Source: Nitrospira sp.
GTDB lineage: Bacteria > Nitrospirota > Nitrospiria > Nitrospirales > Nitrospiraceae
Assembly (NCBI GenBank): GCA_005116815.1
Contig: SWDR01000002.1
Span: 10,239-74,238 of the forward strand
Length of the DNA: 64,000 nucleotides
Reading direction: 5' to 3'
Within the stretch, counting starts at the first letter, position 1. Every line of letters starts with the position of its first letter. A program made the position numbers and the translations under genes. The notes beneath the pieces are model-generated. The model was not told where the DNA came from, did no database searches, and saw only the letters and a list, made by a program, of their open reading frames with translations. Positions 4,041-59,864 of the stretch are shown here, one piece after another.

Positions 4041-4117
<77 letters not shown>

Positions 4118-21110: not shown

Positions 21111-21202
21111 TCATCTGGCTTGTGGGCTGTAGGGGTTTGGGGCCTAATCGAGGGCGGTTGTGGAGTGTGCAGCAGCGGTTTGAGACTGTGGAGAGAAGAC
21201 GG

Positions 21203-21277: not shown

Positions 21278-21341
21278 AACCGAGCTTGCTCGACCCGGAG
21301 CGAATACGATGGGCGCGACGGGAAAAGGCGTGAAAGTGATG

Positions 21342-21417
21342 GCCCACGTAGCTCAGTTGGTAGAGCACGTCCTTGGTAAGGACGAGGTCACGCGTTCGAT
21401 CCGCGTCGTGGGCTCCA
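21342..21417 (+). tRNA. tRNA-Thr (anticodon GGT)
   Basis: GCCCACGTAGCTCAGTTGGTAGAGC ACGTCC-TTGGTAA-GGACG...GGTTCGATCC...CGTGGGCTCCA. Confidence 0.9.
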
Positions 21418-41123: not shown

Positions 41124-42242
41124 ATGTTGAGTTCATTTACATCATTCAAGGGTCTTGCGGAAACCGATCTGTTCACGATGTTCACCCCCAAGCGGCAGCT
41201 TGTGGGCCTGGATATTGGGTCGAGCGGTATCAAGCTCGTTCAATTGAAGGAAAGCCGAGGACGCTTCATTCTCCAGAAGTTTGGGTTTAAAGCGCTTGAA
41301 CCGGAAGTGATTGTCGATGGTACGGTGATGGACGAGGGGCGGGTGGTATCGGCGATCAAGGAATTGTTCGAGGAAACGAATGTCAAGGTAAAGCAGGTTG
41401 CGGTGTCAATTTCAGGCCATGCCGTCATCATTAAAAAGATCAGTCTTCCTCCAATGCCCGATGAGGAGCTGGAGGGACAGGTGAGACTGGCGGCGGAACA
41501 ATATATTCCGTTCGATATCAATGAGGTGAACATCGATTTCAGTGTGTTGCCTTCTCCTGAGGCTTCTGGCGATGCGCAAGGCGAGATGTCGATCATTCTT
41601 GTTGCAGCCAAGAAGGATAAGATCAATGAATTGACCGAACTTGTCAAAGGGGCCGGGTTGTTTCCTCTGGTCATGGATGTGGATGCTTTTGCGATCGAAA
41701 ACATGCATGGGATCAACTATCCCGTTTCGCAGGAGGATACGACGGCGCTCGTGAATATTGGCGCGAGCGTCATGAATATCAACATTGTTCGAGGCGGTAC
41801 GTCGTTATTTACACGTGATATTCCCATCGGAGGGAATCGTTATACGGAAGCGATTCAACGAGAAATGGGTATGTCCTACGAAGAGGCAGAAGAAACGAAA
41901 AAAGGTGAGCGCTCGGCTGGGAGTAATCAGGCTGCCGTGACCACGGTTATCGATAGTGTGAATGCTGAGGTTGCATCTGAGATCGCCCGAACCATCGACT
42001 ATTTCAAGTCGACCTTGGCAGATGCGGATGTACAGCATGTCCTCTTGTGTGGAGGGGGCGCTCAGGTCAAGGGTTTGGTCGTACAACTGAAAGATCGTAT
42101 GCAGGCCGATGTCGAGGTCGCCAATCCGTTTAGTGAAATCGATACCTCGGGAAGCGATTTTGATCAGGACGCGTTGGCTGCACTGGCACCGTTAGCTGCT
42201 GTGGGGGTTGGCTTGGCCCTTAGATCGGTAGGCGACCGATGA
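41124..42242 (+). CDS. pilM: Type IV pilus assembly protein PilM
   Basis: LVGLDIGSSGIKLVQL (actin-like ATPase fold), ~372 aa. Stop overlaps the pilN start (ATGA). Confidence 0.9.
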   Translation: MLSSFTSFKGLAETDLFTMFTPKRQLVGLDIGSSGIKLVQLKESRGRFILQKFGFKALEPEVIVDGTVMDEGRVVSAIKELFEETNVKVKQVAVSISGHAVIIKKISLPPMPDEELEGQVRLAAEQYIPFDINEVNIDFSVLPSPEASGDAQGEMSIILVAAKKDKINELTELVKGAGLFPLVMDVDAFAIENMHGINYPVSQEDTTALVNIGASVMNINIVRGGTSLFTRDIPIGGNRYTEAIQREMGMSYEEAEETKKGERSAGSNQAAVTTVIDSVNAEVASEIARTIDYFKSTLADADVQHVLLCGGGAQVKGLVVQLKDRMQADVEVANPFSEIDTSGSDFDQDALAALAPLAAVGVGLALRSVGDR

Positions 42243-43753
42243 TTCGTATTAACTTATTGCCAGAGCTGAAGGGGCGCAAGGCCAAGCCTCAGTATGATGT
42301 CAGAGCCCAGGCCCTGTTGGGTGTGGGATTGGTGCTCATCACGTTGGCTGGCTGTTGGTGGTATTCGGCGTCGCTTGATGAAGAAATAAGTGCGCAGCAG
42401 GCCAAAAAGTCAGACTTGGAGAAGCAGGTCGTGCAGTTGAAGGAGCAAGTCAAGCAGGTTTCCGACTTTGAAAGCCGGAAGAAGGTGCTGGAAGACAAAA
42501 ATCATATTATTGACGAGCTGGAGAAGTCACGTGTTGGCCCTGTCAGGGTGCTTGACCATGTCAGTCAGAGCTTGGAGCCGCTCAAGGTCTGGCTGGTACG
42601 AGTCGCAGTCACGGGGAAAGAGATTGACCTTGAGGGCCGTGCAGCGACCAATGATGATGTGGTGGAATTCGTCAACATGTCAGATGGCCAGGATGAGCTC
42701 ATTCTGAGAGCCTCAAAAAACCCTCACCCGAAATTGATTGGCCGGATTACGATCGGGTTGGGAGAGGGGATTACCGGGTGGGTCGCCCAGGAACGAACGC
42801 GCGTCGTGATTCCGAGCAACGCCAGCGACGACTCGCGGTTTAAATTTTTCCACAACCTTCCGGAAGATCGCCATCAAGCCTTCGTCTCCGTGCCGATCAT
42901 GGCGAAGAAGGAAGTGGTCGGTGTGATCAATGTCCAACATAAACGGCCGAAGCGCTATCGGCCTGACGAGATCGCGCTGCTTTCGACCATTGCCAATCAG
43001 GTCGGAGGCGCGATCGAGAACGCGCGGCTCTACGATCAGATGAAACGCAAAGCCCTTCAAGTGGAAACATTGTCGCTGGTTTCAGAAACGGTGGCTTCCA
43101 ATCGATTGATCGAAGACGTGTTGCAGCTCCTGGTGACCATGACCGCCCAAATGATGAGTTCCAAGATCTGCTCGATCATGTTATTGGACGAAACCAGCGG
43201 AGAGCTGCGGATCGAGGCGACACAAAGCCTCAGCGAGCAATATCGCCGTAAGCCAAATCTCAAGGTCGGTCAGAGCATCAGCGGTCGTGCGGTGAAAGAC
43301 CGTCGGCCGATTATCGTGGCTGATGTCACCAAAGAGCAGGACTATATGTATCCGGACATGGCCAAGAAAGAAGGGTTATGCTCCATGGTGTCGGTGCCCA
43401 TGATGGTGAGGGAGAAGGCGGTGGGTGTGATTAATAGCTATACGTCTGTCCCGCACGTGTTTACCAGTGAAGAGGTGAAGCTGCTTCAGGCTATCGCTAA
43501 TCAAGCCGCCATCGCCATCGAGCATACGACCCTGATTGAGAAGTCTTTTGAGATGCAGGAAGCGCTGGCGGTTCGAAAGCTGATGGAGCGGGCTAAGGGC
43601 TACCTGATGCGCTCGAAGAAGCTGACAGAAGAAGAGGCCTTCAAGCTCATTCAGCGGCAAAGTATGGATCTGCGGAAGTCGATGCGCGAGATCGCCGAGG
43701 CCGTGTTGCTGGCAGGGGAAATCGACGGACGGGTGGATAGGCAGCGGGGCTAA
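42239..43753 (+). CDS. Composite ORF: PilN N-terminal ~146 aa joined in frame to a 5'-truncated GAF-GAF-ANTAR regulator
   Basis: Residues 1-146: MIRINLLPE, TM helix, coiled coil, VWLVRVAVTGKEIDLEGRAATNDDVVEFVN (PilN). From about nt 42677: two GAF domains (GEGITGWVAQ..., VGVINVQH / GQSISGRAV..., VGVINSY), then ANTAR (AVRKLMERAKGYLM....LTEEEAFKLIQRQSMDLRKSMREIAEAVL). Confidence 0.85.
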   Translation: MIRINLLPELKGRKAKPQYDVRAQALLGVGLVLITLAGCWWYSASLDEEISAQQAKKSDLEKQVVQLKEQVKQVSDFESRKKVLEDKNHIIDELEKSRVGPVRVLDHVSQSLEPLKVWLVRVAVTGKEIDLEGRAATNDDVVEFVNMSDGQDELILRASKNPHPKLIGRITIGLGEGITGWVAQERTRVVIPSNASDDSRFKFFHNLPEDRHQAFVSVPIMAKKEVVGVINVQHKRPKRYRPDEIALLSTIANQVGGAIENARLYDQMKRKALQVETLSLVSETVASNRLIEDVLQLLVTMTAQMMSSKICSIMLLDETSGELRIEATQSLSEQYRRKPNLKVGQSISGRAVKDRRPIIVADVTKEQDYMYPDMAKKEGLCSMVSVPMMVREKAVGVINSYTSVPHVFTSEEVKLLQAIANQAAIAIEHTTLIEKSFEMQEALAVRKLMERAKGYLMRSKKLTEEEAFKLIQRQSMDLRKSMREIAEAVLLAGEIDGRVDRQRG

Positions 43754-43861
43754 CAGGATGCCGAAACGTCTGTCTTTCTCACCCGCCTAATCAGGGCACG
43801 CTGATCCCGCATTGTTGCCCTCGCTTGTTGCTGTAACTGTGAAATGTCGTTGGTGGTCGTT

Positions 43862-45640
43862 ATGCGAACGTTTCGAATCGCCATGGTGCAGATGAATCCG
43901 ACGGTCGGGGATCTGGAGGGCAATGTCCGCCGGATTACTGGTTGGTTGCGCGAGGCGAGGAAGGCGAAGGCCGATTTGGTGGCCTTCCCGGAGCTGGCGA
44001 TCACCGGCTACCCACCTGAAGATCTGTTATTGAAACCACGTTTTGTCGCGGATAATCGCCGCGCGCTCCAGGAAATAGTCCGTCATTGCCGGGGTCTTGC
44101 CGCAGTGGTGGGCTACGTCAGCCAGAGCGATGGTCTCGATCCAAAGCCGGCTCGCTCGTCGGTCGTGCCGGCTGGTGCGCACGAACTCTACAATGCCGCG
44201 GCGGTAATCGCCGATCAGACACTTGTCACGACCTATTGTAAGTGGTACTTGCCGAACTACGGGGTGTTCGACGAGAGCCGGTATTTTTATCCGGGCAGAC
44301 GGCTGCCGCTCATTCGCTTGCGCGGCACGGTGGTCGGGGTCAATATTTGCGAAGATGTCTGGTTGCCGGAAGGGCCCACTCGTTTCCAGGCGGCTGCGGG
44401 CGCCGAAGTGATCGTGAATATCAATGCATCGCCGTTTCATCTGGGCAAGAGTCGGATACGCGAGCAGATGCTGGCAACCCGCGCGCGGGAAAACGGGGTG
44501 GTGCTCACCTATACCAATATCGTTGGCGGGCAAGATGAACTGGTGTTCGACGGGAATAGTGTGATCCTCGATCACCGGGGTGAGGTCATTGCGCGGGGAA
44601 AAGCGTTCGAGGAAGATTTGATCGTTGCGGATCTCAATATGGAGGCAGTCGTGCGAGAGCGGCGCACTCAGGGGAGAAAAAAAGTTTTGCCGAAACAGGT
44701 GGCCGCTGCGGTGGAGATGTGCAGTGCCTCGCTTCCCGCCATTTCAAAGATTCGGGTGCGCGCAGTTCCCGATATGCTAGCAGTCCTGGATCCGCTTGAG
44801 GAGGTCTATCTGGCACTCACCTTGGGGGTGCGAGATTACGTGAGGAAGAATGGATTCGCCCGAGCTGTGATCGGCTTGAGCGGGGGGGTGGACTCGGCAT
44901 TGACCGCCGTGCTTGCCGTCGATGCGCTCGGTGCCGAGAACGTCAAGGGGCTGTTCATGCCGTCGCCCTATACGTCTCAAGATAGTTATGAAGATGTCGC
45001 AGAGCTGGGGGCACGACTCGGGATTTCTGTCAGGACCCTCCCGATCACGAAGCTGTTCAATACGTACCGGGATGCGCTTACGAAGACGTTTGAGGGGCGG
45101 GCGCCCGATACGACGGAAGAGAATCTCCAAGCCCGCATTCGGGGCAATCTCCTCATGGCCTTCTCCAATAAGTTCGGCCATCTGGTGCTCACCACGGGCA
45201 ACAAGAGCGAGATGAGTGTCGGATACGCCACGTTGTACGGTGATATGGCCGGCGGATTTGCCGTGATCAAAGACGTCCCCAAGACGATGGTGTACGATCT
45301 GGCGAGGCTCCGCAATCTCAGAGGCTCGGCCCCGGCCATTCCCAAACGGACGTTAAGCCGGCCCCCGACCGCCGAGTTGAGGCCCGACCAGAAGGATGAA
45401 GATTCGTTGCCGCCCTATGAGGTCCTCGATCCCATTCTTCAGGCCTATGTGGAAGAAGACCGGTCTCTCGAAGAAATCGTCATCGCAGGGTACGACCGCG
45501 CGACGGTGGCACGAGTGATGGCGATGGTCGATGGCAGCGAGTACAAGCGCCGGCAGGCGCCGGTCGGCATCAAAATCACGCATCGGGCCTTGGGGAAAGA
45601 TCGCCGGATGCCGATTACGAACGGCTATCGTAATCGATAG
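43862..45640 (+). CDS. nadE: Glutamine-dependent NAD+ synthetase (nitrilase domain + NadE domain)
   Basis: MRTFRIAMVQMNPTVGD, FPELAITGYPPEDL, VNICED (CN-hydrolase triad); GLSGGVDSAL (PP-loop). Confidence 0.93.
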   Translation: MRTFRIAMVQMNPTVGDLEGNVRRITGWLREARKAKADLVAFPELAITGYPPEDLLLKPRFVADNRRALQEIVRHCRGLAAVVGYVSQSDGLDPKPARSSVVPAGAHELYNAAAVIADQTLVTTYCKWYLPNYGVFDESRYFYPGRRLPLIRLRGTVVGVNICEDVWLPEGPTRFQAAAGAEVIVNINASPFHLGKSRIREQMLATRARENGVVLTYTNIVGGQDELVFDGNSVILDHRGEVIARGKAFEEDLIVADLNMEAVVRERRTQGRKKVLPKQVAAAVEMCSASLPAISKIRVRAVPDMLAVLDPLEEVYLALTLGVRDYVRKNGFARAVIGLSGGVDSALTAVLAVDALGAENVKGLFMPSPYTSQDSYEDVAELGARLGISVRTLPITKLFNTYRDALTKTFEGRAPDTTEENLQARIRGNLLMAFSNKFGHLVLTTGNKSEMSVGYATLYGDMAGGFAVIKDVPKTMVYDLARLRNLRGSAPAIPKRTLSRPPTAELRPDQKDEDSLPPYEVLDPILQAYVEEDRSLEEIVIAGYDRATVARVMAMVDGSEYKRRQAPVGIKITHRALGKDRRMPITNGYRNR

Positions 45641-45645
45641 GCTGG

Positions 45646-46611
45646 TTACGGGGCTGTTTGCAGTGGCTTTGAGGGGAGCGTGGGTTTTCGCTTCTGGCTG
45701 TCGAGTTGTTTCCGAACCGATTGCAGTTCCTTCCTGAGAACTTCCAACTCCAAGTCTTTCTTGATGACGAGATCCTTCAACGTATGGATCTCTGCTTCGC
45801 GTTGAGCGGGCGAGTCCAACTGGGCGTCGGATGGCCTGGCCCCTGCAAGTTGCTCTCGAGTCGGAGCTGCCACGTGTTCGACGGGAGGCGTCGTTCGTTC
45901 GATAGCTGGTGCTAATAGCGAGGCCTGTTGCAGCAGCTGATAATCGATGGCGAGAAACCTGTCAGTGGAGCTTCCACCTGTCGGAGGGCGAAAACTATCG
46001 GACCGTTGGGCCGCACTCGGCGTGAAGAGCAGGGTTCGGTTCGAGAGGCCAGAGGGATCTGGTAGACGCCGGTGGGCTGGGTCGTTGGTGTGAAGCTGGC
46101 CCGGTGCATATCGGTATTGCGAGAGAGTGACGTAGAGCGAGAGGCCATAGGCGTAGAGGGAGCCGGCTGTAGTCTCTGTAACGGAGTGCTCCAAGCGCCC
46201 TGTGCCTTGGCGAGGACTGGTGACCTGAAATGATACGGCCTCTCCCGTTCCCGCAGCCGTCAGGGCTTTGGCAATTCTTGGAGTGAGGAACTGAACTTCT
46301 TCCGGCGAAAAAACCGGGACAGGAGAAGCCGACCCTGCCAGTAGGTCTTGGAGTCCTCTCTGCTGTTCCTGGACCTGCATCCCGCTCAAGACGCGGGCGA
46401 TGAGGGCTGGCTCCAGATGGATCGGGTGACTGGCCTGAATCGACCGATCAGCCATTGGTTGAAGGGATACTATACCGCGAGGATCTTCGGAGAGGGCTCT
46501 GCCGGTTTGGCCGGTTGCGCTACAGGCTGTGCCGCTCACACAGGCTAACACGAGTAGTAACAATGCCTTGCGAAGGCGACTAAATCTCGAAGAGGGGAAT
46601 AAGAGAGCCAT
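45646..46611 (-). CDS. Hypothetical lipoprotein with a C-terminal coiled coil
   Basis: Lipobox-like LLLVLACVSGTAC; 321 aa; no recognised domain. Confidence 0.5.
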   Translation of the reverse strand: MALLFPSSRFSRLRKALLLLVLACVSGTACSATGQTGRALSEDPRGIVSLQPMADRSIQASHPIHLEPALIARVLSGMQVQEQQRGLQDLLAGSASPVPVFSPEEVQFLTPRIAKALTAAGTGEAVSFQVTSPRQGTGRLEHSVTETTAGSLYAYGLSLYVTLSQYRYAPGQLHTNDPAHRRLPDPSGLSNRTLLFTPSAAQRSDSFRPPTGGSSTDRFLAIDYQLLQQASLLAPAIERTTPPVEHVAAPTREQLAGARPSDAQLDSPAQREAEIHTLKDLVIKKDLELEVLRKELQSVRKQLDSQKRKPTLPSKPLQTAP

Positions 46612-46736
46612 AGGTGCGGCAAATCTAGCATAGATGACAGATCACCGCCAGGATGGATGCGTCGTGCGGCCATCCCCTGAGATGCCAGCCTAGGGAGATG
46701 CGCCGTTCCCCTCTTTCGTATAAGGCCGCAAGGGCG

Positions 46737-46766
46737 TTGACAGATTTTCAGAGAGCATGTTACAAG
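46737..46766 (+). promoter_or_regulatory. Candidate promoter of the porin-amtB leader
   Basis: TTGACA (46737-46742), 18-nt spacer ending in TGT (extended -10), TACAAG (46761-46766). Confidence 0.35.
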
Positions 46767-46782
46767 AGTCCCCATCGGATAG

Positions 46783-46873
46783 GGGAACAACGGCGTTTCC
46801 CACCGGCCTCAAGATAGTACGGCATGGACAATGGCGTCCTCCGGCCCCAACGGGCTAGAGGGCGTTTTTTTTT
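46783..46873 (+). promoter_or_regulatory. Dual-hexaloop + terminator leader (ANTAR-target-like attenuator) upstream of porin-amtB-amtB-glnB-glnD-glnA
   Basis: P1 GGGAAC-AACGGC-GTTTCCC (46783-46801, one bulge), 24-nt linker, P2 GGAC-AATGGC-GTCC (46826-46839). The terminator CGTCCTC-CG-GCCC caac GGGC-TA-GAGGGCG (46835-46864) followed by T9 (46865-46873) shares the GTCC arm with P2. Confidence 0.6.
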
Positions 46874-47074
46874 GGCTGCATGCGAACAGGCTGAGTGACA
46901 GAGAAGATGAGAAGCGAGATGCATACATTGGCCGGTGGGAATCGATGTGGAGATGAGAATCGAATGGGCTTGGAGGGTGCGCACAATGGCGTGCGTGGCG
47001 ACGACGTCGTCGAGGTGAGCGAGAGTAGGTCTGTGAATCACAACATCACCAATCGGACGAGGGAGGCCGTCATT

Positions 47075-48388
47075 ATGTCAGTACGCAGTCTCATGGGGAT
47101 AGGAATGTGCGCATTAGTTTCGCTGCTTGGTAGCCAGGCAGCATTGGCTCAAGTGGTTCCGCCGACGCCCGCGCCGACCGTGCAAGAGCGGTTGGAGGCA
47201 TTGGAGAAGAAGTCGGATGCGCCGTCGTTGTGGAAGACTCTGGGGTTTAAGGCCTCCGGGTTTCTCGATGTGGCCTATACGCAGAACTTCAACAATCCGA
47301 ACACCAACCTCAATCAACTGCATATCTTCGACACCAACGCCAATTCGTTCATGCCGCACCTGGCGCAGCTCATGTTTGAACGGCCCGCTGATGGAGGAGG
47401 GAGCGAGCTGGACCGGCTTGGCTTCCGAGCAAGGCTGAACTTCGGGATGGATGCCCGGGTGACGAGGGCGCGAACAAATTTTGCGCCTGGTACTAGCAAC
47501 AACGAACTCGACTTCCAGGAGCTCTATGGCGAGTACATCGTCCCGGTCGGCAATGGGTTGAAAATTCAAGCCGGCAAGATCAACACTTTGATCGGTTATG
47601 AAGTGATCAACAGTTTCGAAAACCCGAACTTCTCGCGCAGCTTCATGTTCGGATTGGGCCAAGCCTTTACGACGACGGGTGTGCGCATGACGTATACCTT
47701 CAATCCGATCGTGACCGCGTCGATCGGTGTGATCAATGGTTGGGACAACGTCGTTGACAATAACAGGGGGAAATCGTTTGAATGGTTGGTCGCCATTACC
47801 CCCCACGAGAAGATCGGCGTGAGTTTCTACGGGTCCTATGGCGCGGAGCAATCGAACGGGCAAGGGGCTGCTTCTTTCACAACCCAGGCCGATCCGACGG
47901 CTAAGCGGACGGTGGTGGGGTCGATCATTAGCTTGAAGCCCACCGACAAGGACACCATCATTCTTGAGCCCTACTACGCCAATGAGGGGAATGCTAGCAC
48001 AGTAAGCCGATCGCAGAATGCCCGATGGAACGGGTTTGCCGGCTATCTGATTCATGATTTCTCCGATCAATGGAGCGCCAGATTCCGGGGAGAGATCTTC
48101 GAGGATGCGGGTGGCGCCAGGACCTGTACGGGGGGAATCAGTTTCGCCGGAGGGACTAATACCTGTGCCAGCGGCAGCTCGCCGATTGGCTCTAGTGTCG
48201 CGGGAGCGGGAGGGATCGCCCAGACACTATGGGAGAACACCTTTACACTCCAATACAAACCCTTTCCCTCGCTGATCACGCGGACCGAGTTTCGGTACGA
48301 CAAGTCCGATAAGAACGTCTTTCTCTATGGCAGCCGACCGGCAAACAATCAAGAAACCCTGTCATTCCAAGTCATCTATATGTTCTGA
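47075..48388 (+). CDS. Outer-membrane beta-barrel porin (OmpL-like/bbp2-type by composition)
   Basis: Start at MSVRSLMGIGMCALVSLLGSQAALAQ (signal peptide, GGGAGG RBS). Alternating beta-strand pattern, C-terminal ...FQVIYMF. Confidence 0.65.
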   Translation: MSVRSLMGIGMCALVSLLGSQAALAQVVPPTPAPTVQERLEALEKKSDAPSLWKTLGFKASGFLDVAYTQNFNNPNTNLNQLHIFDTNANSFMPHLAQLMFERPADGGGSELDRLGFRARLNFGMDARVTRARTNFAPGTSNNELDFQELYGEYIVPVGNGLKIQAGKINTLIGYEVINSFENPNFSRSFMFGLGQAFTTTGVRMTYTFNPIVTASIGVINGWDNVVDNNRGKSFEWLVAITPHEKIGVSFYGSYGAEQSNGQGAASFTTQADPTAKRTVVGSIISLKPTDKDTIILEPYYANEGNASTVSRSQNARWNGFAGYLIHDFSDQWSARFRGEIFEDAGGARTCTGGISFAGGTNTCASGSSPIGSSVAGAGGIAQTLWENTFTLQYKPFPSLITRTEFRYDKSDKNVFLYGSRPANNQETLSFQVIYMF

Positions 48389-48411
48389 GCAGGGGAGGAG
48401 ATGAACTCATT

Positions 48412-49794
48412 ATGAACCGATATCTTCGTATCATGACATCGATGCTTCCCGTCCTAGCCTGCGCCATCTTGGTGGGGACGACGGGTCTCTATGCACAAGA
48501 CGCGGGGGCGCCGGCTCCCGCAGCCCCGGTGGTCGCAGCTCCGGAAGCGGCGGCCATGCCAGCCGCACCGAAGATCGACACCGGAGACACCACCTGGGTC
48601 TTGGTCTCCACGGCGATGGTGCTCGCGATGACGGCGCCGGGCCTTGCGCTGTTCTACGGAGGCATGGTGCGTTCGAAAAATGCGCTGGGGACGATCATGC
48701 AGAGTTTTGTGATCCTCTGTCTGATCAGCATCCAGTGGGTCTTGTGGGGCTACAGTTTGGCCTTCGGGCCGGATAAGGGGCACCTGATCGGGGGGCTCGA
48801 ATGGATCGGGCTCAACGGGGTTGGTTTAGAGCCGAACGCCGATTATGCGGCGACGATTCCGCATCAAGCCTTCATGATCTTTCAGATGATGTTTGCGGTG
48901 ATCACGCCCGCGCTCATCACGGGGGCAGTGGCCGAACGGATGAAGTTCAGCGCCTTTCTTGTCTTTACCTTGCTTTGGGCAACCTTCATCTACGATCCCT
49001 TGGCCCATTGGGTGTGGGCGGTTGGGGGCTGGGTCCGAAACCTGGGAGCCCTGGACTTTGCCGGTGGAACGGTAGTCCACATTAGCTCCGGTGCTGCGGC
49101 CTTGGCCTGTGCCATCGTGTTGAAGAAGCGGTTGGGTTACGGCAGGGAACATATGGTCCCGCATAATTTGCCAATGACGGTCTTGGGAGCGTCCTTGCTC
49201 TGGTTCGGGTGGTTCGGGTTTAACTCCGGCAGCGCCGTCGCCTCCGGGGCGTTGGCGGTCAGTGCCTTTGTCGTCACCAATACGGCGGCTGCTGCTGCGG
49301 CCTTGGCTTGGATGGTCGTCGAGTGGATGTATCGAGGCAAACCGACGGTGTTGGGCGCCGCGAGCGGCGCGGTCGCGGGATTAGTGGCGATTACGCCGGC
49401 CTCCGGATTTGTTGGTCCTGTGGCGTCGATTGTGATCGGGCTAGGGGCGGGAGTCCTCTGTTATTTAGCGGTGTTGTGGAAGTCGAAGTTGGGCTATGAT
49501 GACGCCCTCGATGTGGTCGGTATCCATGGTGTCGGAGGTGTCTGGGGTGCGTTGGCAACAGGTCTCTTTGCCTCGAAGGCAATCAACGCGGCTGGCGGTG
49601 ACGGGTTGTTTTATGGCAATCCGGCACAATTGGGTATTCAGGCGCTGGCGGTGCTCATCTCCGTGGTGTTTGTGTTTGTTGGAACCTATGCCATTCTGAA
49701 GTTGGTCGACGGATTGATCGGGCTGCGTGTGAGTGAAGAAGATGAGCGAAAGGGCCTCGATCTCAGTCAACATGATGAACGGGCCTATTCGTAA
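48412..49794 (+). CDS. amtB: Ammonium transporter AmtB (copy 1)
   Basis: DTGDTTWVLVSTAMVLAMT.PGLALFYGG; DFAGGTVVHISSG; GFNSGSA; VVGIHGVGGVWG. Confidence 0.95.
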   Translation: MNRYLRIMTSMLPVLACAILVGTTGLYAQDAGAPAPAAPVVAAPEAAAMPAAPKIDTGDTTWVLVSTAMVLAMTAPGLALFYGGMVRSKNALGTIMQSFVILCLISIQWVLWGYSLAFGPDKGHLIGGLEWIGLNGVGLEPNADYAATIPHQAFMIFQMMFAVITPALITGAVAERMKFSAFLVFTLLWATFIYDPLAHWVWAVGGWVRNLGALDFAGGTVVHISSGAAALACAIVLKKRLGYGREHMVPHNLPMTVLGASLLWFGWFGFNSGSAVASGALAVSAFVVTNTAAAAAALAWMVVEWMYRGKPTVLGAASGAVAGLVAITPASGFVGPVASIVIGLGAGVLCYLAVLWKSKLGYDDALDVVGIHGVGGVWGALATGLFASKAINAAGGDGLFYGNPAQLGIQALAVLISVVFVFVGTYAILKLVDGLIGLRVSEEDERKGLDLSQHDERAYS

Positions 49795-49824
49795 GGCAAC
49801 GGGTGACCGAAGGCAAGGAGGACG

Positions 49825-51225
49825 ATGGTGATTGACCCTGCACGAATCCACATTCGCAAGCGTAGGCGCCAAGGGGCGCTCAGTGTCATAGGCCTGACTA
49901 TCGCGGTCGTGATGCTGGGAACCTTGGCGGTCTTCACAGGGTCAGTCGCGGCGCAGGATACAGCGGCCGCACCGGCGCAAGCCGTCGCCGCAACTCCTGT
50001 GCTGAAGATCGATACGGGGGACACAGCATGGGTCCTCACCTCCACGGCGCTGGTGCTGGCGATGACGATGCCTGGATTGGCCCTGTTCTATGGAGGTCTC
50101 GTCCGGGGGAAGAATGTCCTGGGGACGATCATGCAGAGCATCGTCATTCTCTGCATGGTCAGCCTGCTCTGGATTGTTGTCGGGTACAGCTTGGCCTTCG
50201 GCCCTGACAAGGGGGGGCTCATCGGGGGGCTGGACTGGATCGGGTTGAGCGGGGTAGGAAGCGAGCCGCATCCCGTCTACGGTCCCACGATTCCTCACCA
50301 AGTGTTCATGTTATTCCAGCTCATGTTTGCGGCAATCACGCCGGCTCTGATTACGGGGGCGGTGGCTGAGCGGATGAAGTTTTCCGCCCTACTGCTGTTC
50401 GCGGCTTTGTGGTCCCTGGTGATTTATACGCCGGTGGCCCATTGGATCTGGGGCGGTGGATGGTTGGGAAAGATGGGCGCGTTGGATTTCGCCGGAGGCG
50501 CAGTGGTGCATATCAGCTCCGGCGTGAGCGCCTTGGTCTGTGCCATTGTATTGGGGAAGCGCAAGGGACATGGCGCCGATTATATGGCGCCGCATAACCT
50601 GCCGTTCACGTTGTTAGGGACCGGCCTGCTCTGGTTTGGCTGGTTCGGATTCAACGCGGGTAGCGCATTGGGCGCGAATGGGTTGGCCGCGAGTACCTTC
50701 TTGGCGACCCATGCAGCCGCGGCCGCTGGGGCGCTGGTGTGGATGGGAGTGGAGTGGGCGCATCGTGGTAGGCCGACCGTCCTGGGTCTGGCCAGTGGCG
50801 CGGTAGCCGGACTGGCCACCGTGACCCCGGCCTCCGGCTATATCGGACCACTATCCGCGATCGTAATTGGCGTATTTGCAGGGATTCTGTGCTATTTCGC
50901 CGTTGTTTGGAAGGGGAGGATGGGCTATGATGACTCGCTCGATGTCGTGGGTATCCACGGTGTGGGCGGCGTCTTCGGCATCCTCGCGACGGGTGTCTTC
51001 GCCTCCAAGGCCATTAATGCCGCCGGGGCAGACGGGCTCTTGTTCGGGAATGCCGGTCAACTCGGAATTCAGGCGATCATGGTCGCAGCGGTCGCGCTGT
51101 TTTCCGTGATCGGGACCTGGTTGATCTTGAAGGTCGTCGATGCAGCGGTTGGGCTGCGGGTCACTCCGGAAGACGAATCGACGGGGTTGGACCTGAGTCA
51201 GCACAACGAGCGGGCCTATTCATAA
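49825..51225 (+). CDS. amtB: Ammonium transporter AmtB (copy 2, tandem paralog)
   Basis: Same Amt signatures. Roughly 70% identical by eye to copy 1 across the whole core. Confidence 0.95.
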   Translation: MVIDPARIHIRKRRRQGALSVIGLTIAVVMLGTLAVFTGSVAAQDTAAAPAQAVAATPVLKIDTGDTAWVLTSTALVLAMTMPGLALFYGGLVRGKNVLGTIMQSIVILCMVSLLWIVVGYSLAFGPDKGGLIGGLDWIGLSGVGSEPHPVYGPTIPHQVFMLFQLMFAAITPALITGAVAERMKFSALLLFAALWSLVIYTPVAHWIWGGGWLGKMGALDFAGGAVVHISSGVSALVCAIVLGKRKGHGADYMAPHNLPFTLLGTGLLWFGWFGFNAGSALGANGLAASTFLATHAAAAAGALVWMGVEWAHRGRPTVLGLASGAVAGLATVTPASGYIGPLSAIVIGVFAGILCYFAVVWKGRMGYDDSLDVVGIHGVGGVFGILATGVFASKAINAAGADGLLFGNAGQLGIQAIMVAAVALFSVIGTWLILKVVDAAVGLRVTPEDESTGLDLSQHNERAYS

Positions 51226-51310
51226 ACAGTCCATGACACTATTGACCATGCAATCATGCCGGCGATCCTTGCGACGATGAATGGTCAGCGTCCTCGGGTC
51301 TGCCAGGTAA

Positions 51311-54348
<3,038 letters not shown>

Positions 54349-54394
54349 CAGAGGCGGCGCAGTCTCATTCAGCGTCATTTGAAAGGAGAAGGGG

Positions 54395-55804
54395 ATGAAC
54401 GTACGTGAAGTGTTGGAGTATGTGAAGAAACATAAAGTCCAGATCGTCGACTTGAAGTTTGTCGATCTCATCGGGACCTGGCAGCATTTCAGTATTCCGA
54501 CGAATGAATTGACGGAAGACCTCTTCAAGGATGGGTCCGGACTGGACGGCTCCTCCATTCGTGGCTGGAAGGCCATCAATAACAGCGACATGTTGGTCGT
54601 GCCGGATCCGTCGACGGCCTGTCTCGATCCGTTTTGTGCGGTCCCGACGCTGAGCCTCATCGGCAACGTGGTCGATCCGATCACGCGCGAGACCTACGAT
54701 CGCGATCCGCGCTATGTCGCCCAGAAGGCGGAGAAATACCTCCAGAGCACGAAGATCGGCGATACCTCCTACTGGGGTCCCGAAGCCGAGTTCTTCATTT
54801 TCGATCAAGCCCGGTACGATCAGAATGGCCATAGCGGCTACTACTTCATCGACTCCGAAGAAGGCGTCTGGAACATGGGGCAGGAAGGCCACAACCTGGG
54901 CGGCAAGATCCGCCAGAAGGAAGGCTATTTCCCTGTCGCCCCGACCGATACGCAACAGGACATCCGCAGCGAGATGATCCTGGAGATGGAGAAAGCCGGT
55001 ATCCAGATCGAGAAGCATCACCACGAAGTCGCCACGGCCGGTCAGGCGGAAATCGATATCCGCTTCGACTCGCTGGTCAGGACGGCAGACAAAATGATGA
55101 TGTACAAGTACATCGTCAAGAACGTGGCTCGCCGGCATGGCAAGACCGCGACCTTCATGCCGAAGCCGATTTTCGGCGATAACGGATCGGGCATGCATAG
55201 TCACCAGAGCATCTGGAAGGACGGCAAGCCCCTGTTCGCCGGGAAGGAATATGCGGGCGTGTCGCAGATGTGCCTGCACTACATCGGCGGGATTCTGAAA
55301 CATGCGCCGGCGCTGGCCGCCTTTACCAATCCGACGACGAACTCCTACAAGCGTTTGACGCCAGGGTTCGAAGCTCCGGTGTTGTTGGCCTATTCCAGCC
55401 GGAATCGGTCGGCCGGCATCCGGATTCCCATGTATTCACCGAGCCCCAAGGCGAAGCGGATCGAGGTGCGGTTCCCGGACCCGGCCGCGAACCCGTATCT
55501 CGCCTTCTCTGCCATGCTCATGGCCGGGTTGGATGGTATCCAGAACAAGATCAACCCGGGTGAACCGGCCGAGCAGGATCTCTACGATCTCGAAGCGAAG
55601 GCAGCGGCGAAGATTCGCACCATGCCGGGCAGCCTCGACGAAGCGTTGAACAACCTTGAGAAGGACCATGAGTTCCTGCTCAAAGGCGGGGTCTTCAGCA
55701 AGGACCTGATCGAAGCCTGGATCGGGTACAAGCGGACCAAGGAAGTCGATACCATGCGGTTGCGCCCGCATCCGTATGAGTTCTACCTCTATTACGACGT
55801 CTAG
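54395..55804 (+). CDS. glnA: Glutamine synthetase type I
   Basis: FDGSSIRGW; [16 protein letters not shown]; NSYKRL; adenylylation-loop-like NLYDL variant; 469 aa. Confidence 0.97.
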
Positions 55805-55877
55805 AGTACAGGACCCATCTTAGGTATGGGTTGACCTGGTCGAAGAGGCATGGTACATATCTCTTTATGAGCGGAGT

Positions 55878-55970
55878 CGAGGCAACGGCGCCTCGGTAAG
55901 GCTTTCGACATACGGCACACGGACAACGGCGTCCGTCATTCTGGAAAGAGTGGCGGACGCCGTGTTGTTT
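55878..55970 (+). promoter_or_regulatory. Dual-hexaloop + terminator-like element (ANTAR-target-like), unit 1 of the glnA-FNT spacer
   Basis: P1 CGAGGC-AACGGC-GCCTCG (55878-55895), 23-nt linker, P2 ACGGAC-AACGGC-GTCCGT (55919-55936). ACAACGGCGTCCG can alternatively pair with CGGACGCCGTGTTGT (55954-55968), followed by TTGCC (weak U tract). Confidence 0.5.
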
Positions 55971-56028
55971 GCCGACAGATTCCTGGACGATGAAGTCTTG
56001 GATCGGGGTGGCAGAGCCACCTCCACGT

Positions 56029-56079
56029 AGGACAATGGCGTCCTCATTCTGGCAGCAGAGTGAGGACGTTTTCGTTTTT
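56029..56079 (+). terminator. Hexaloop hairpin overlapping an intrinsic terminator, unit 2 of the glnA-FNT spacer
   Basis: AGGAC-AATGGC-GTCCT (56029-56044). Terminator CGTCCTC (56039-56045) / GAGGACG (56062-56068) followed by TTTTCGTTTTT. The preceding hairpin GGTGGC-AGA-GCCACC (56007-56021) is not a hexaloop. Confidence 0.55.
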
Positions 56080-56129
56080 AAGGGATGCGGACGAACGGCG
56101 GTCTGGGAGAAGAAGACAACCACCTCCCA

Positions 56130-56252
56130 CAGGATGCTCAAAAAGACCGTCCAGCAAGGCCGCAGCGAGTGAAGGGCCGAGGCGTACCCGGAGGGTACGT
56201 TGAGGGTCTGAACGATGCGAGAACGAAGCTGGCGGGATTTTTCAGCATCCTG
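56130..56252. repeat. Dispersed palindromic intergenic repeat, copy B (MITE/REP-like)
   Basis: CAGGATGCTCAAAAAGACCGTCCAGCAAGGCCGCAG...GAGGCGTACCCGGAGGGTACGTTGAGG...GAACGAAGCTGGCGGGATTTTTCAGCATCCTG. Aligns with 16526-16684. Ends 26 nt before the FNT start codon. Confidence 0.75.
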
Positions 56253-56277
56253 TTGAGGAGCAACGAAGGAGGGCGTC

Positions 56278-57108
56278 ATGCATACAGCAGATCATGAACG
56301 GATTGCAGGCCTCGCGAAAAAGAAGTTTGGATTCATGGATAGCTCGCTCGGCGGGTATCTCTTGTTGTCGGCGATGGCCGGGGTCTACCTCGGCTTTGGC
56401 ATCGCGCTGATATTCAGTCTAGGGGCACCCTTGATGGCAGCCGGATCGCCGGTGGTGAAACTCGTCATGGGGACCTCGTTCGGGATCGCGTTGACGTTGG
56501 TCATCTTCGCCGGATCGGAACTGTTTACGGGCAACAACATGGTGGGGGCGATCGGCGGACTCTCTAAGAGCGTGACCTGGGGGCAAGTCGCGCAATTCAA
56601 TTTCTGGTCATGGGTCGGGAACTTGGTCGGCTCGCTGGCGCTGGCCTGGCTCGTCGTAGAATCAGGCGTCTTTTCGAAGGGGCCTACGGCGGAGTTTCTG
56701 GGGAAGGTGGCGGCGGTAAAAATGTCCCTGCCGGCCTGGGAACTGTTCGTGCGGGGCATTCTCTGTAATTGGCTGATCTGCCTGGCGGTCTGGACCGCGG
56801 GGCGGACCACGAACGATGCGGCAAAAATTCTGCTGATCTTCTGGTGCCTGTTCGCCTTCATCGGCACGGGATTCGAGCATAGCATTGCCAATCAATCGTT
56901 GCTGGGTATGGCGCTCTTCCTCCCGCATGAGGCGGCCGTGAACTGGGCGGGCTTCTGGTACAACCAAATCTTCGTCGTGCTGGGCAATGTCGTGGGGGGC
57001 GGTCTGTTTGTCGGGGGACTCTATTGGATGGTGAGTCCCTATCGGGTGGTGGAAGAGCCGGTCGTGGTAGAGGCAGCGTCCATATCGTCGGTTCCGCTCC
57101 GGTTCTAA
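56278..57108 (+). CDS. Formate/nitrite transporter family (FNT) channel
   Basis: 276 aa with six TM segments. FAGSELFTGN and GFEHSIAN match the two FNT signature regions. Confidence 0.9.
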   Translation: MHTADHERIAGLAKKKFGFMDSSLGGYLLLSAMAGVYLGFGIALIFSLGAPLMAAGSPVVKLVMGTSFGIALTLVIFAGSELFTGNNMVGAIGGLSKSVTWGQVAQFNFWSWVGNLVGSLALAWLVVESGVFSKGPTAEFLGKVAAVKMSLPAWELFVRGILCNWLICLAVWTAGRTTNDAAKILLIFWCLFAFIGTGFEHSIANQSLLGMALFLPHEAAVNWAGFWYNQIFVVLGNVVGGGLFVGGLYWMVSPYRVVEEPVVVEAASISSVPLRF

Positions 57109-57169
57109 GCAGAGTAGAGGCGGTCGGTCGTTGGATAGTCATTCGGTCATAATCTAAAGGAGTACACAC

Positions 57170-57610
57170 ATGGAGAAGGATACGGTTCGAAAGGCGATCA
57201 AGGCGAAGCGGTTGGCAAAGAATGTCACGATTGCGGAGGTGGCGAAGACCGTGGGCAAGAATCCCACGTTCGTGGCGGCGGCATTGAACGGGAACCATCG
57301 ATTCTCTCCGGATGAGGCGAAGAAGATCGGGCATCTGCTTGAACTGGATGCGCCATTGACGGCGGCGCTGAGCGCCTTTCCGGTCCGGACGGATTTCCCT
57401 AACGCGACGGACCCGTTCAAATACCGGCTGCTGGAGATCATCGGGGTCTACGGCGATTCGATGCGGGAGCAGGCTAACGAAATGTTTGGCGACGGCATCA
57501 TGAGCGCGATCGATTTTACGCTCGATATGGAAAAGGTAACGGGGAGCCAGGGCGAAGCGCGGTGCAAGATCACGTTGAACGGCAAGTGGCTCGAATACAA
57601 GACGTTCTAA
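57170..57610 (+). CDS. cynS: Cyanase (cyanate hydratase)
   Basis: 146 aa. N-terminal HTH-like part (KAKRLAKNVTIAEVAK.VG.NPTFVAAAL.G) and catalytic C-terminus (FGDGIMSAIDF...). AAAGGAG RBS. Confidence 0.93.
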   Translation: MEKDTVRKAIKAKRLAKNVTIAEVAKTVGKNPTFVAAALNGNHRFSPDEAKKIGHLLELDAPLTAALSAFPVRTDFPNATDPFKYRLLEIIGVYGDSMREQANEMFGDGIMSAIDFTLDMEKVTGSQGEARCKITLNGKWLEYKTF

Positions 57611-57625
57611 GGTAGGGTTGGCGTG

Positions 57626-57723
57626 CCGGCAATGGAGCCGGTGCAACGAATTGTCGGCTGGCAATGGCGCCAGCTTCTGGGGTTCCTTCGCGGAATCATG
57701 CTGGAAGCTGGCGCCATTGTTTT
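57626..57723 (+). promoter_or_regulatory. Dual-hexaloop + terminator leader (ANTAR-target-like attenuator) between cynS and the wHTH-nirA pair
   Basis: P1 CCGGC-AATGGA-GCCGG (57626-57641), 16-nt linker, P2 CTGGC-AATGGC-GCCAG (57658-57673). A perfect 16-bp terminator stem CAATGGCGCCAGCTTC (57662-57677) / GAAGCTGGCGCCATTG (57704-57719) followed by TTTT consumes the loop and 3' arm of P2. Confidence 0.65.
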
Positions 57724-57750
57724 AAAGAGGGTACAGGAAGGGAGGCGGCA

Positions 57751-59864
<2,114 letters not shown>

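Follow-up and report, generated by a model that had tools for sequence, protein, structure and literature searches.

ANTAR proteins are well known to control nitrogen genes in other phyla, among them those for nitrite reductase, amt, and PII as well as glutamine synthetase, and the premise of a preliminary description of the present locus, that nitrite/nitrate assimilation genes are classic ANTAR targets, agreed with the literature. In the GnfK/GnfR system of Geobacter sulfurreducens, GnfR is a phosphorylated REC-ANTAR protein with a partner kinase, its regulon comprises nifH, nifEN, nifX, and glnK together with amtB, and it binds in gel shifts the RNA CAGGCAANGGCGCC, which overlaps a terminator (Ueki and Lovley, 2010, PMC2995071). 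In Klebsiella oxytoca, the nasF leader of a nitrate/nitrite-assimilation operon carries two hairpins whose hexaloops start with A and have G as the fourth base (A1/G4), and the ANTAR protein NasR senses nitrate or nitrite via a NIT domain. The model-defining system is that of EutV/EutW in Enterococcus faecalis, where the eut leaders for ethanolamine catabolism combine dual hexaloops with an overlap of the second hairpin (P2) and the terminator, a dimer of the response regulator reads the loops plus the closing pair, and linkers of 5-12 nt mark the range tolerated by EutV (Ramesh et al., 2012, PMC3369931). The published ANTAR loop consensus is AAHGRH/AAHGDV with a C-G closing pair, and the structure of an ANTAR-RNA complex has been solved (Walshaw et al., 2022, PMC8934654). 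Actinobacterial targets, finally, are high-GC, are missed by Firmicute-trained models, and mostly overlap start sites (Mehta and Ramesh, 2021, PMC8164766).

The element analyzed herein lies between cynS and orf78-nirA in a 64,000-nt stretch of Nitrospira sp. DNA (hereafter the window, meaning the whole stretch), and is probably an ANTAR-class attenuator of transcription that depends on a protein, with a GAF-GAF-ANTAR protein as its most likely regulator. It resembles the Geobacter system in its ANTAR protein, nitrogen genes, and leader terminators, and the GnfR-bound sequence differs little from P2 here (CUGGCAAUGGCGCC) or from many of the Nitrospira P1s (CAGGCAAYGRCGCCUG). The candidate regulator here, however, is a one-component protein, and the genes concerned are nirA, cynS, focA, amt, glnA, and nadE of a nitrite oxidizer, whereas the GnfR targets include nitrogenase genes. 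With nasF the locus shares a nitrite-assimilation context, an ANTAR protein, and two A1/G4 hairpins in the leader, and the nasF P2 (GGAU-AAAGGC-GUCC) and the P2 that is common in Nitrospira (GGAC-AAAGGC-GUCC) are nearly identical. Unlike NasR, the GAF-GAF-ANTAR protein is without a NIT domain, and its predicted regulon reaches far beyond nitrite reduction, a breadth that speaks for a general nitrogen-status signal and not for induction by the substrate. The eut system likewise has several attenuators across one gene cluster, but its stems are AT-rich whereas those of the Nitrospira family are GC-rich, with a median linker (23 nt) above the EutV-tolerated range; a model including eut-type RNAs scores the Nitrospira element weakly, and a GAF protein and nitrogen assimilation would stand here in place of a response regulator and ethanolamine catabolism. 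The actinobacterial targets are similar in their high GC content and in escaping Firmicute-trained models, whereas the cynS-nirA element is of the terminator/antiterminator type. Some actinobacterial targets cover the RBS and act on translation (PMC8164766), as the nadE>porin leader of lineage II also seems to do.

Alternative structures of the cynS-orf78 spacer

The features of the spacer and its flanking genes are as follows.
57170..57610, + strand: cynS (cyanase), upstream of the predicted switch; Pfam Cyanate_lyase and CYNS_N
57623..57644, + strand: first hairpin (P1), 8-bp stem with 5-bp core 57626-57641
57631-57636, + strand: P1 hexaloop AAUGGA, with C-G closing pair
57645..57655, + strand: P1-P2 linker, 11 nt between the extended stems and 16 nt between the 5-bp cores
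57656..57675, + strand: second hairpin (P2), 7-bp stem with core 57658-57673, proposed antiterminator
57663-57668, + strand: P2 hexaloop AAUGGC, read from the sequence
57660..57723, + strand: intrinsic-terminator-like hairpin, 16 perfect bp followed by UUUU (57720-57723)
57751..57987, + strand: orf78, conserved 78-aa protein, RBS GGGAGG
57984..58412, + strand: nirA (ferredoxin-nitrite reductase), 5' fragment; Pfam NIR_SIR_ferr

Reading the sequence directly, we recovered the anatomy given in the preliminary description, namely P1 (CCGGC-AATGGA-GCCGG), the 16-nt linker between the cores (57642-57657), P2 (CTGGC-AATGGC-GCCAG), and a 16/16-bp stem in which 57662-57677 (CAATGGCGCCAGCTTC) and 57704-57719 are perfect reverse complements of each other, with TTTT thereafter. 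In the 5' arm of the terminator, the final base of the P2 5' arm is followed by the complete P2 loop, the complete P2 3' arm, and 4 more bases. Because P2 bases are reused in this way, P2 and the terminator cannot coexist, as had been claimed. Folding of the region yielded both conformers: P2 (-12.0 kcal/mol) forms early, in transcripts cut off ahead of the 3' arm of the terminator, whereas the minimum free energy (MFE) structure contains P1 (-13.2 kcal/mol alone) and the terminator. Beyond its 16 bp the terminator is extended by G-U and G-C pairs to ~20 bp and carries an apical 6-bp helix, giving -43.6 kcal/mol. Shuffled versions of the whole region fold less well than the region itself (z = -5.4; 0/200 as good). 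The U tract is just 4 U long here and is interrupted in orthologues (e.g., UUGUGUUUGAA), and the termination efficiency is thus uncertain.

The preliminary description had placed a small wHTH ORF and nirA downstream of the element. The ORF is indeed present as the conserved orf78, the stop codon of which overlaps the nirA start (ATGA), while its winged-helix character is a hint: a Pfam search of the product gave no match, and a low-confidence structure model of three helices (pLDDT 62.6) had winged-helix DNA-binding domains as its best fold matches, all weak (E = 0.13 or worse). The nirA gene, recognized by its Pfam domain, is present in the window only as a 5' fragment, since an assembly junction cuts it at about 58412 and the translation becomes antisense groEL after about 143 codons. 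Alignment to the near-identical contigs L001 and L002, in which nirA is full length (519-520 aa), stops at 58411-58413. It is this gene that the switch is predicted to control. With only 27 nt from the U tract to the start codon of orf78, there is no room for a separate promoter, and nirA expression would therefore need readthrough. The unit is most likely fed by a conserved promoter farther upstream.
55831..55859, + strand: sigma-70-like promoter (TTGACC, 17 nt, TGg-TACATA) of the focA-cynS-orf78-nirA unit

Its TTGAC and TGGTA.A are nearly invariant columns of a 48-species alignment (A5, described below); a simple promoter scan of 42680-58412 called none, this promoter being visible only in the alignment. 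A further candidate in the 3' end of cynS (TTGAAC-15 nt-TACAAG, 57575-57601) was rejected as unsupported, having a poor spacer and lying inside conserved coding sequence.

Agreement with the ANTAR target definition

At the level of sequence, the ANTAR-target form attributed to the element was found in every part. Where the definition of Ramesh et al. (2012) asks for two tandem stem-loops of at least 3 bp, P1 has 5-8 bp and P2 5-7 bp, and both hexaloops (AAUGGA and AAUGGC) carry A1 and G4 along with A2 and the C-G closing pair, in agreement with the AAHGRH/AAHGDV consensus. The linker of 11-16 nt falls within the range of 2-25 nt used for ANTAR targets (Mehta and Ramesh, 2021, PMC8164766), which some family members exceed. 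The overlap of P2 with the terminator covaries in the family, with only 4 U following here. The same organism encodes, 14 kb upstream of the element, an ANTAR-domain protein (PF03861, E = 1.8e-18) with the layout of sensor domains followed by a C-terminal ANTAR domain.

A covariance model built from Nitrospira copies (R1) matched the element at 57623-57674 with 44.4 bits, the sequence itself being a member of the R1 seed. A second model (R2), built from 29 published hits among Firmicute and proteobacterial ANTAR targets only, gave the element 12.8 bits (E about 0.14), the fifth-ranked match in the window and within the window background of unrelated matches; the cut-offs used in published work were 10 bits for initial and 14 bits for high-confidence assignment (Mehta and Ramesh, 2021, PMC8164766). 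Rfam 15, at gathering and permissive thresholds, returned only tRNAs in the window and chance-level matches in 57400-57950. The bare motif, for which two hairpins with stems of 5 bp or more, A..G.. hexaloops, and a linker not exceeding 40 nt were required, occurred twice against 1.2 times per window in dinucleotide shuffles, and is thus neither rare nor significant alone. With AA.GR. loops the corresponding figures were 2 observed and 0.01 expected, under a definition picked after seeing the data. The significance of the element comes from its loop sequence, terminator overlap, and conservation rather than from the bare motif.

Predicted sister switches in the window

Scanning the window with R1 gave further matches at 55876, about 56005, and 46783, all on the + strand and in the nitrogen cluster only, and nothing else below E = 0.2. 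At least three further copies of the same design, i.e., dual C-AANGGC-G hexaloop hairpins with P2-terminator overlap, could be delineated on the + strand.
55876..55970, + strand: sister switch 1, glnA-focA spacer (R1 68.5 bits; seed sequence)
55982..56080, + strand: sister switch 2, in tandem with sister switch 1 (R1 21.8 bits; terminator scan)
46737..46873, + strand: sister switch 3, leader of porin-amt-amt-PII-glnD-glnA (R1 33.1 bits, E = 8e-6)

In sister switch 1, P1 (55876-55897) and P2 (55919-55936) both have AACGGC loops, and the terminator (55926-55963, then GUUGUUUG) was picked up by the terminator scan and covaries in A5. Sister switch 2 has a weak P1 (CCUGGAC-GAUGAA-GUCUUGG, 55982-56001), a P2 of AGGAC-AAUGGC-GUCCU at 56029-56044, and a terminator at 56037-56070, then UUCGUUUUU. 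Sister switch 3, which lies outside the R1 seed and whose element was also found in L091, begins with a promoter-like TTGACA, 18 nt, TGu-TACAAG (46737-46766), followed by P1 (46782-46801, loop AACGGC), P2 (46826-46839, loop AAUGGC), and a terminator (46833-46866) whose U tract counts 9 U and ends at 46873. In the window, unlike in L074, no motif was found in the gap that separates nadE from the ANTAR gene. Together with the cynS-orf78 element, these amount to at least four predicted ANTAR-type switches in this Nitrospira nitrogen-assimilation cluster.

Conservation and covariation across Nitrospirales

At E <= 0.1, R1 matched 100 sites in 80 Nitrospirales nirA loci. Every one of these lies on the sense strand and falls between annotated genes, in the contexts glnA>focA or ABC transporter, cynS>focA, cynS>orf78-nirA, and nadE>porin/amt. 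Among the loci without a match were ones from marine Nitrospirales and Nitrospinaceae. A dual-hairpin scan of the same loci found 116 sense versus 8 antisense candidates, and P2 re-pairs with a downstream arm ahead of a T-rich tail in 74/118 sense cases (80 loci and the window) versus 0/8 antisense cases. Across 103 copies, loop 2 has A1, A2, and G4 at 100% each and a C-G closing pair at 100%, which equals the published consensus; the family linker ranges from 1 to 33 nt. Two cultured-strain assemblies were sampled: the Nitrospira sp. KM1 locus has an element upstream of a urea-transporter operon, and the Nitrospira sp. NS4 locus (L034) has 3 matches.

Pair counts in the seed alignment A1 (99.7% paired) suffer from circularity, the seed having been chosen for its pairing, and the unselected alignments A4 and A5 were used instead. 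In A5, which covers 180 nt downstream of glnA in 48 species not preselected for pairing, P1 and P2 are 91.5% paired versus 82.3% in shuffles (0/500 as high) and 27-42% in slid registers, with both sides changing in 8/13 pairs. The A5 terminator is 99.2% paired, with both sides changing in 8/16 pairs, and position 3 of the P2 loop covaries with its partner in the 3' arm of the terminator (AU 29, CG 9, GU 3, GC 2, UG 2). The element is a member of a strand-specific, intergenic, covarying family spread over Nitrospira nitrogen-assimilation genes.

At the cynS-orf78 site itself, covariation is thin among true orthologues, and the element has been lost in some relatives. P2 is unchanged in 6 orthologues but for one wobble, the terminator is kept in L009, L027, and L034-36 with wobble-only changes, and the 2 compensatory pairs found lie in P1. 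Three of the 4 more distant orthologues have G, not A, at position 1 of loop 1; GAUGAA-type loops occur among published ANTAR targets too. The switch is deleted in L019 and decayed in L021, both close relatives, and absent in short-spacer lineages, and is thus dispensable at this site. The L019 deletion resembles recombination between repeated GCTGGC segments.

Candidate regulator

The nitrogen cluster is headed, on the same natural contig piece as the element, by the gene of the candidate regulator.
42680..43753, + strand: GAF-GAF-ANTAR gene (ANTAR E = 1.8e-18; two GAF domains)

The first 64 codons of this ORF were lost to an assembly junction in the window, and the full protein of 421 aa is encoded in L091:4077-5342. 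Its ANTAR part aligns to Rv1626 (1s8n, 7e-9), 6wsh (6e-6; a PDB entry titled only 'Response regulator'), and NasR (4akk, 4e-4), and GAF1 matches the EI-Ntr (PtsP) GAF domain at E = 1e-23. The EI-Ntr GAF domain has been reported to bind glutamine (PMC4848567), and the sensor domain of the regulator points to glutamine as a putative signal. The protein is 86-96% identical across Nitrospira versus 77% for NirA between the same groups, and the order GAF-ANTAR, nadE, porin/amt and onwards is syntenic in many lineages. An exact-sequence look-up of the window amt gave matching loci, and that of the window nadE gave none. A weak 'GAF-ANTAR' tblastn match in L076 proved to be a GAF/sigma-54 activator and not an ANTAR protein. 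According to Ramesh et al. (2012, PMC3369931), none of the GAF-ANTAR proteins had been characterized, and none was described in the later literature examined.

Proposed mechanism and alternative explanations

In the proposed mechanism, transcripts would most likely start at the conserved promoter (55831-59), would already have passed the two tandem switches of the same kind, and on entering from cynS would form P1 and P2 first. Once the 3' arm (57704-57719) emerges, the terminator (-43.6 kcal/mol) would displace P2 (-12), and RNA polymerase would stop at the short U tract, ahead of the orf78-nirA RBS. An active ANTAR regulator, most likely the 421-aa protein of the cluster head, would instead grip both C-AAUGGN-G hexaloops as a dimer and hold P2 closed, so that no terminator would form and orf78-nirA would be transcribed. 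We infer that this protein reports nitrogen status and would switch on porin-amt-PII-glnD-glnA, focA-cynS, and orf78-nirA together under nitrogen limitation. More tentatively, and with somewhat less than even probability, this one protein may set the whole nitrogen-assimilation program after initiation, in place of an NtrC-/NtcA-type activator, through attenuators before porin-amt-PII-glnD-glnA, nadE, urea or nitrate/cyanate ABC transporters, focA-cynS, and orf78-nirA, sensing glutamine and/or 2-oxoglutarate directly via its EI-Ntr-like GAF domain.

A constitutive intrinsic terminator of cynS, with P1 and P2 as incidental GC-rich hairpins and nirA under its own promoter, would be compatible with the chance occurrence of the bare dual-hairpin motif about once per window, with the dominance of the terminator in the MFE structure, and with the relatives that manage without the element at this site. 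We consider it quite improbable, however, as no promoter was found and only 27 nt separate the U tract from orf78, a terminator of such stability would silence nirA if constitutive, both hairpins share their C-AAUGGN-G loops with about 100 family members, and the P2/terminator overlap is conserved and covarying. Nor do the near-identical P2 and terminator sequences at several sites, or the recombination-like L019 deletion, lend more than a negligible probability to a dispersed REP-like palindromic repeat devoid of a specific regulatory role, given that the matches within 64 kb are confined to 11 kb of nitrogen-gene leaders and invariably precede genes for nitrogen uptake or assimilation.

The palindromic half-site arrangement of CTGGC-N6-GCCAG and the small, possibly winged-helix protein encoded just downstream (a weak match) might also recall DNA operators, i.e., inverted repeats for a dimeric transcription factor such as the orf78 product. 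All 100 of the 100 R1 matches, however, have one orientation relative to the genes, the stems covary rather than keep their sequence while the non-palindromic loops are conserved, and P2 covaries with a third, distal arm, a pattern for which only an alternative structure in RNA accounts; operators thus appear extremely unlikely. A real switch with another reader, be it a REC-ANTAR (NasT/GnfR-like) or NIT-ANTAR (NasR-like) protein, an RNA-binding protein outside the ANTAR class, or, in a riboswitch, a small ligand directly, has a small probability. The link to the regulator is one of gene neighborhood, and in the classical nitrite/nitrate systems the reader is NasR or NasT; against this, the GAF-ANTAR gene shows synteny with the regulon and unusual conservation, the loops are an exact match to ANTAR targets, and a riboswitch is disfavored by the lack of a ligand pocket in two 5-8-bp hexaloop hairpins and of any Rfam riboswitch match.

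Significance

Nitrospira are the dominant nitrite oxidizers in soils, waters, and wastewater plants, and nitrite serves them both as an energy source and, through NirA, as a nitrogen source. In the literature searched, nothing was found on how their decision to assimilate nitrite is made; the same literature links ANTAR to neither Nitrospira nor nitrifiers, and within it the novelty claimed at the outset was upheld. What is new here is the lineage, the phylum Nitrospirota, and the GAF-type candidate regulator. The number of switches, the presence of the regulator gene in the window, and the lineage-limited occurrence at the cynS-orf78 site go beyond the preliminary description.

The ANTAR-class attenuator proposed herein offers a concrete circuit, consisting of an RNA motif with known rules, a predicted regulon with four or more attenuators in one cluster and conservation across Nitrospira lineages, and one highly conserved candidate regulator. 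It would extend ANTAR regulons to the phylum Nitrospirota and provide a natural entry point for the study of GAF-ANTAR proteins. In the annotation of genomes, the covariance model picks out operon boundaries and conditional terminators, which are passed over by gene callers. Should the tentative program-wide reading prove true, the protein would be the first characterized GAF-sensor ANTAR regulator, and the circuit would be the first nitrogen-control circuit described for nitrite oxidizers.

Predicted structure and folding of the cynS-nirA element

The tandem hexaloop hairpins and overlapping terminator that a preliminary description had placed between cynS and nirA were found to match the window base for base, and their location directly upstream of a small ORF and nirA was likewise borne out. 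The features of the element and the adjoining ORF are as follows.

57626-57641, + strand: hairpin P1, CCGGC-AATGGA-GCCGG
between P1 and P2, + strand: linker of 16 nt, counted between the 5-bp cores
57658-57673, + strand: hairpin P2, CTGGC-AATGGC-GCCAG
57662-57677 and 57704-57719, + strand: terminator arms, perfect reverse complements, followed by TTTT
57751-57987, + strand: orf78, 78 codons, with its ATG 27 nt past the terminator end and its stop overlapping the nirA start

When extended by folding, P1 comprised 8 bp (57623-57644, -13.2 kcal/mol), P2 comprised 7 bp (57656-57675, -12.0 kcal/mol), and the terminator stem grew to approximately 20 bp, topped by an apical helix (-43.6 kcal/mol). 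Both of the anticipated conformers were recovered: in the folding of truncated transcripts, those cut before 57704 folded as P1 and P2, the terminator taking over once its 3' arm was present, and the minimum-energy fold of the full-length region combined P1 with the terminator (z = -5.4 relative to shuffled sequences). Forcing the P1+P2 conformer gave -46.2 versus -63.2 kcal/mol, a penalty of 17 kcal/mol.

Comparison with known ANTAR targets

As defined by Ramesh et al. 2012 (PMC3369931), the ANTAR substrate consists of two hairpins, each with a stem of at least 3 bp and an A1/G4 hexaloop, a variable linker, and a P2 overlapping a terminator; in many bacteria such motifs were reported to lie upstream of genes for PII, amt, nitrite reductase and glutamine synthetase, and the consensus in their alignments is SYAC-AAHGRH-GUDB and RRGY-AAHGDV-GCYY. 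The P2 of K. oxytoca nasF is GGAU-AAAGGC-GUCC, and loops with an initial G are also present among the published targets. In 103 Nitrospira copies, the P2 loop read A (100%), A (100%), N, G (100%), G (98%), C (99%) and was closed by a C-G pair in every copy, and the P1 loop was similar at 81-92%. The REC-ANTAR protein GnfR of Geobacter binds CAGGCAANGGCGCC at the leader terminators of nifH, glnK and amtB (PMC2995071), and this sequence is almost the same as P2 of the cynS-nirA element.

A covariance model built solely from 29 published, AT-rich targets (R2) scored the element at 12.8 bits (E ~0.14), a value no better than those of some background matches; the same weakness has been reported for high-GC genomes (PMC8164766). 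No Rfam family matched the element, and the sole Rfam matches in the window were four tRNA genes, located at 4044-4117 (-) and in a cluster of three at 21026-21414 (+).

Recurrence within the window and across Nitrospirales

In its bare form (two hairpins, each of at least 5 bp and with an A..G.. hexaloop, joined by no more than 40 nt of linker), the motif showed no excess over chance in the window (2 observed, 1.2 in shuffled windows). What did go beyond chance was the make-up of the second match and the outcome of a model search. The second match lay 1.7 kb upstream of the element in the glnA-focA spacer and shared its design: the loops were AACGGC twice, and a 17-bp terminator with GUUGUUUG behind it reused the P2 loop and 3' arm; immediately behind it was a weaker additional copy (56029-56080). 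A covariance model built from 68 Nitrospira copies (R1), run unfiltered on both strands, recovered the cynS-nirA element and the glnA-focA copies, which were part of its seed or related to it. It also gave a new match at 46783-46839 (33.1 bits, E = 8e-6), just upstream of porin-amt-amt-PII-glnD-glnA, with a clean terminator and nine U behind, and no further match with E < 0.2 in the 128 kb of both window strands. A single hairpin with the family loop, GCGCAC-AAUGGC-GUGCGU, was seen at 46941-47008, less than ~30 codons into the porin ORF; its scores were weak (R1 12.4 bits, R2 15.2 bits), and it may represent a remnant or else the porin leader's third hairpin.

A NirA-based scan yielded 80 loci from different Nitrospirales species (NirA identity 59-94%). 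There the pattern scanner found 116 dual hairpins on the sense strand versus 8 on the antisense strand, the latter being about the chance expectation from shuffles. With the window included, 74 of 118 sense but 0 of 8 antisense cases had a downstream arm, trailed by a T-rich stretch, with which the P2 loop and 3' arm re-pair. R1 gave 100 matches at E <= 0.1 in the 80 loci, every one on the sense strand and none inside annotated genes.

Locations of the 100 R1 matches
27: glnA-focA spacer
26: after glnA, before other genes (in L011, the one locus examined, an NrtA/CynA-type ABC transporter)
23: cynS-focA spacer
8: nadE-porin/amt spacer
4: cynS-orf78 spacer, the position of the window element
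remainder: mostly between amt genes

The cultured Nitrospira sp. KM1 carries a family copy (L095:13395-13452, 32.3 bits) before a 472-aa protein without a Pfam match and then a urea-type ABC transporter operon, and the regulon may thus include urea uptake in this strain. The nadE>porin leaders of lineage II (L068:1125-1250; similar in L032, L034, L065, L067, L071, L073 and L084) have a 7-nt linker. Their P2, CUGGC-AAUGGC-GCCAG, is identical to that of the cynS-nirA element, and its loop and 3' arm pair alternatively with UCUCUCUUUGGAGGCGUCAUG, the stretch that forms the following gene's ribosome-binding site and start codon, with no terminator; judging from this pairing, these leaders are probably a translational version of the switch.

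Covariation and promoter downstream of glnA

Pair counts from the seed were biased by its choice and were therefore replaced by an alignment picked by position only, covering the 180 nt downstream of glnA in 48 species. P1+P2 pairing amounted to 91.5% versus 82.3% in shuffles (0 of 500 as high) and 27-42% in slid registers, with both-sided changes in 8 of 13 pairs; the terminator was 99.2% paired, with both-sided changes in 8 of 16. The third base of the P2 loop covaried with its partner in the terminator 3' arm (AU 29, CG 9, GU 3, GC 2, UG 2), and in the deep-branching loci L074, L076 and L077, where P2 had changed from GGAC/GUCC to UGGC/GCCA, the distal terminator arm had changed in step. 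A three-way constraint of this kind is expected of a switch that alternates between two structures.

A nearly invariant promoter (TTGACn, 17 nt, TGgTAnAnA; alignment columns ~36-65) was located ~20 nt upstream of P1. In the window, sigma-70-like promoters with an extended -10 (TTGACn, 17-18 nt, TGn-TAcAnA) were observed at 55831-55859 in the focA leader and at 46737-46766 in the porin leader, likewise ~20 nt ahead of P1; a simple promoter scan did not call these two.

Gene cluster, assembly junctions and candidate regulator

The window is a stitched sequence, in which 42680-58412 forms one natural piece bounded at both ends by assembly junctions and includes one unknown gene on the opposite strand.

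42680-58412, + strand: GAF-GAF-ANTAR gene (5'-truncated), nadE, porin, two amt, PII, glnD, glnA, focA/nirC, cynS, orf78, nirA (3'-truncated)

At the left junction, the ORF at 42239-43753 (504 codons) is a chimera in which an N-terminal PilN fragment continues in frame into the ANTAR gene at codon 65. Relative to L091, a related contig, and the KM1 locus L095, ~4.4 kb is missing there, namely the rest of pilN, pilO, pilP, pilQ, aroB and the ANTAR-gene start. Since the two sides are natural neighbours, a collapsed assembly gap looks likely rather than a random join; were it a real deletion, aroB would be gone. At ~58412-58440, nirA (+) loses sense after ~143 codons and abuts groEL (-) lacking its last ~70 codons; near-identical contigs have a nirA of 519-520 aa and, behind it, a ParE/Phd toxin-antitoxin pair. 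The junction is a contig join or misassembly. The distal glnA-focA spacer (56084-56277) could not be aligned to the otherwise 94-99% identical L001 and L002, and L091 matches the window through to its own end at 56190; this segment, which lies downstream of the tandem switches, is a variable insert.

Homologues of orf78 (72-78 aa, invariant motif FLTxDRLSREG) were observed in many loci, in each case immediately upstream of nirA, their stop codon overlapping its start; no Pfam family was found for it, and a low-confidence three-helix model gave its best but weak matches to the winged-helix domains of LexA, MarR and Lrp.

The ORF ending at 43753 encodes a pair of GAF domains together with an ANTAR domain (E = 1.8e-18), the latter related to Rv1626, PDB 6wsh ('Response regulator') and NasR; the intact protein has 421 aa (L091). 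Its homologues, named 'signal transduction protein with GAF and PtsI domain' by JGI, are 86-96% identical across Nitrospira, a conservation above that of NirA, and in several lineages they open the nitrogen cluster. EI-Ntr's GAF domain has been reported to bind glutamine (PMC4848567). According to Ramesh et al. 2012 (PMC3369931), none of the GAF-ANTAR proteins had by then been characterised, and a 2025 review lists only the architecture. A deep-branching Nitrospirales locus encodes a GAF/sigma-54-activator/HTH_8 protein (NifA/NtrC-like) between PII and focA-nirA (L076:7185-8828), so that the same cluster contains a different kind of nitrogen regulator there.

Evolution and significance of the proposed switch

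The element was unchanged in near-identical contigs. Four more distant species (L027, L034-36) retained P2 as GGCUGGC-AAUGGC-GCCrGC together with the terminator, with only wobble changes, and preserved the P1 stem by two compensatory pairs; the P1 loop read AGUGCU in a single species, the other three having GAUGUU or GAUGAU. In L019 (5766-5876), P1 was kept and the P2 loop and whole terminator were lost by deletion between two GCUGGC segments, and in L021 (9681-9775) the element had decayed to a P1 loop AAUAGA without P2 or terminator. Both are natural losses of the predicted checkpoint, and in lineages with a 60-nt cynS-orf spacer the predicted switch was never present at that position. These losses and absences indicate that the switch at the cynS-orf78 site would be an extra, lineage-restricted checkpoint in a unit already switched at its start.

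That the cynS-nirA element acts as an ANTAR-type attenuator is, on the sequence evidence, probable; the case is weakest at the 4-U tract and at the long linkers that a large part of the family has. Given such an attenuator, the GAF-GAF-ANTAR protein of the cluster would be its likely factor, and we propose only tentatively, and with some doubt, that the signal could be glutamine or 2-oxoglutarate, with activation under nitrogen limitation. The literature searched held no account of ANTAR in Nitrospira or nitrifiers, in agreement with the earlier claim that such control is undescribed in Nitrospira-like nitrite oxidisers. This kind of element is already well known; the novelty lies in the lineage, in how large and coherent the regulon is, and in the sensor type.
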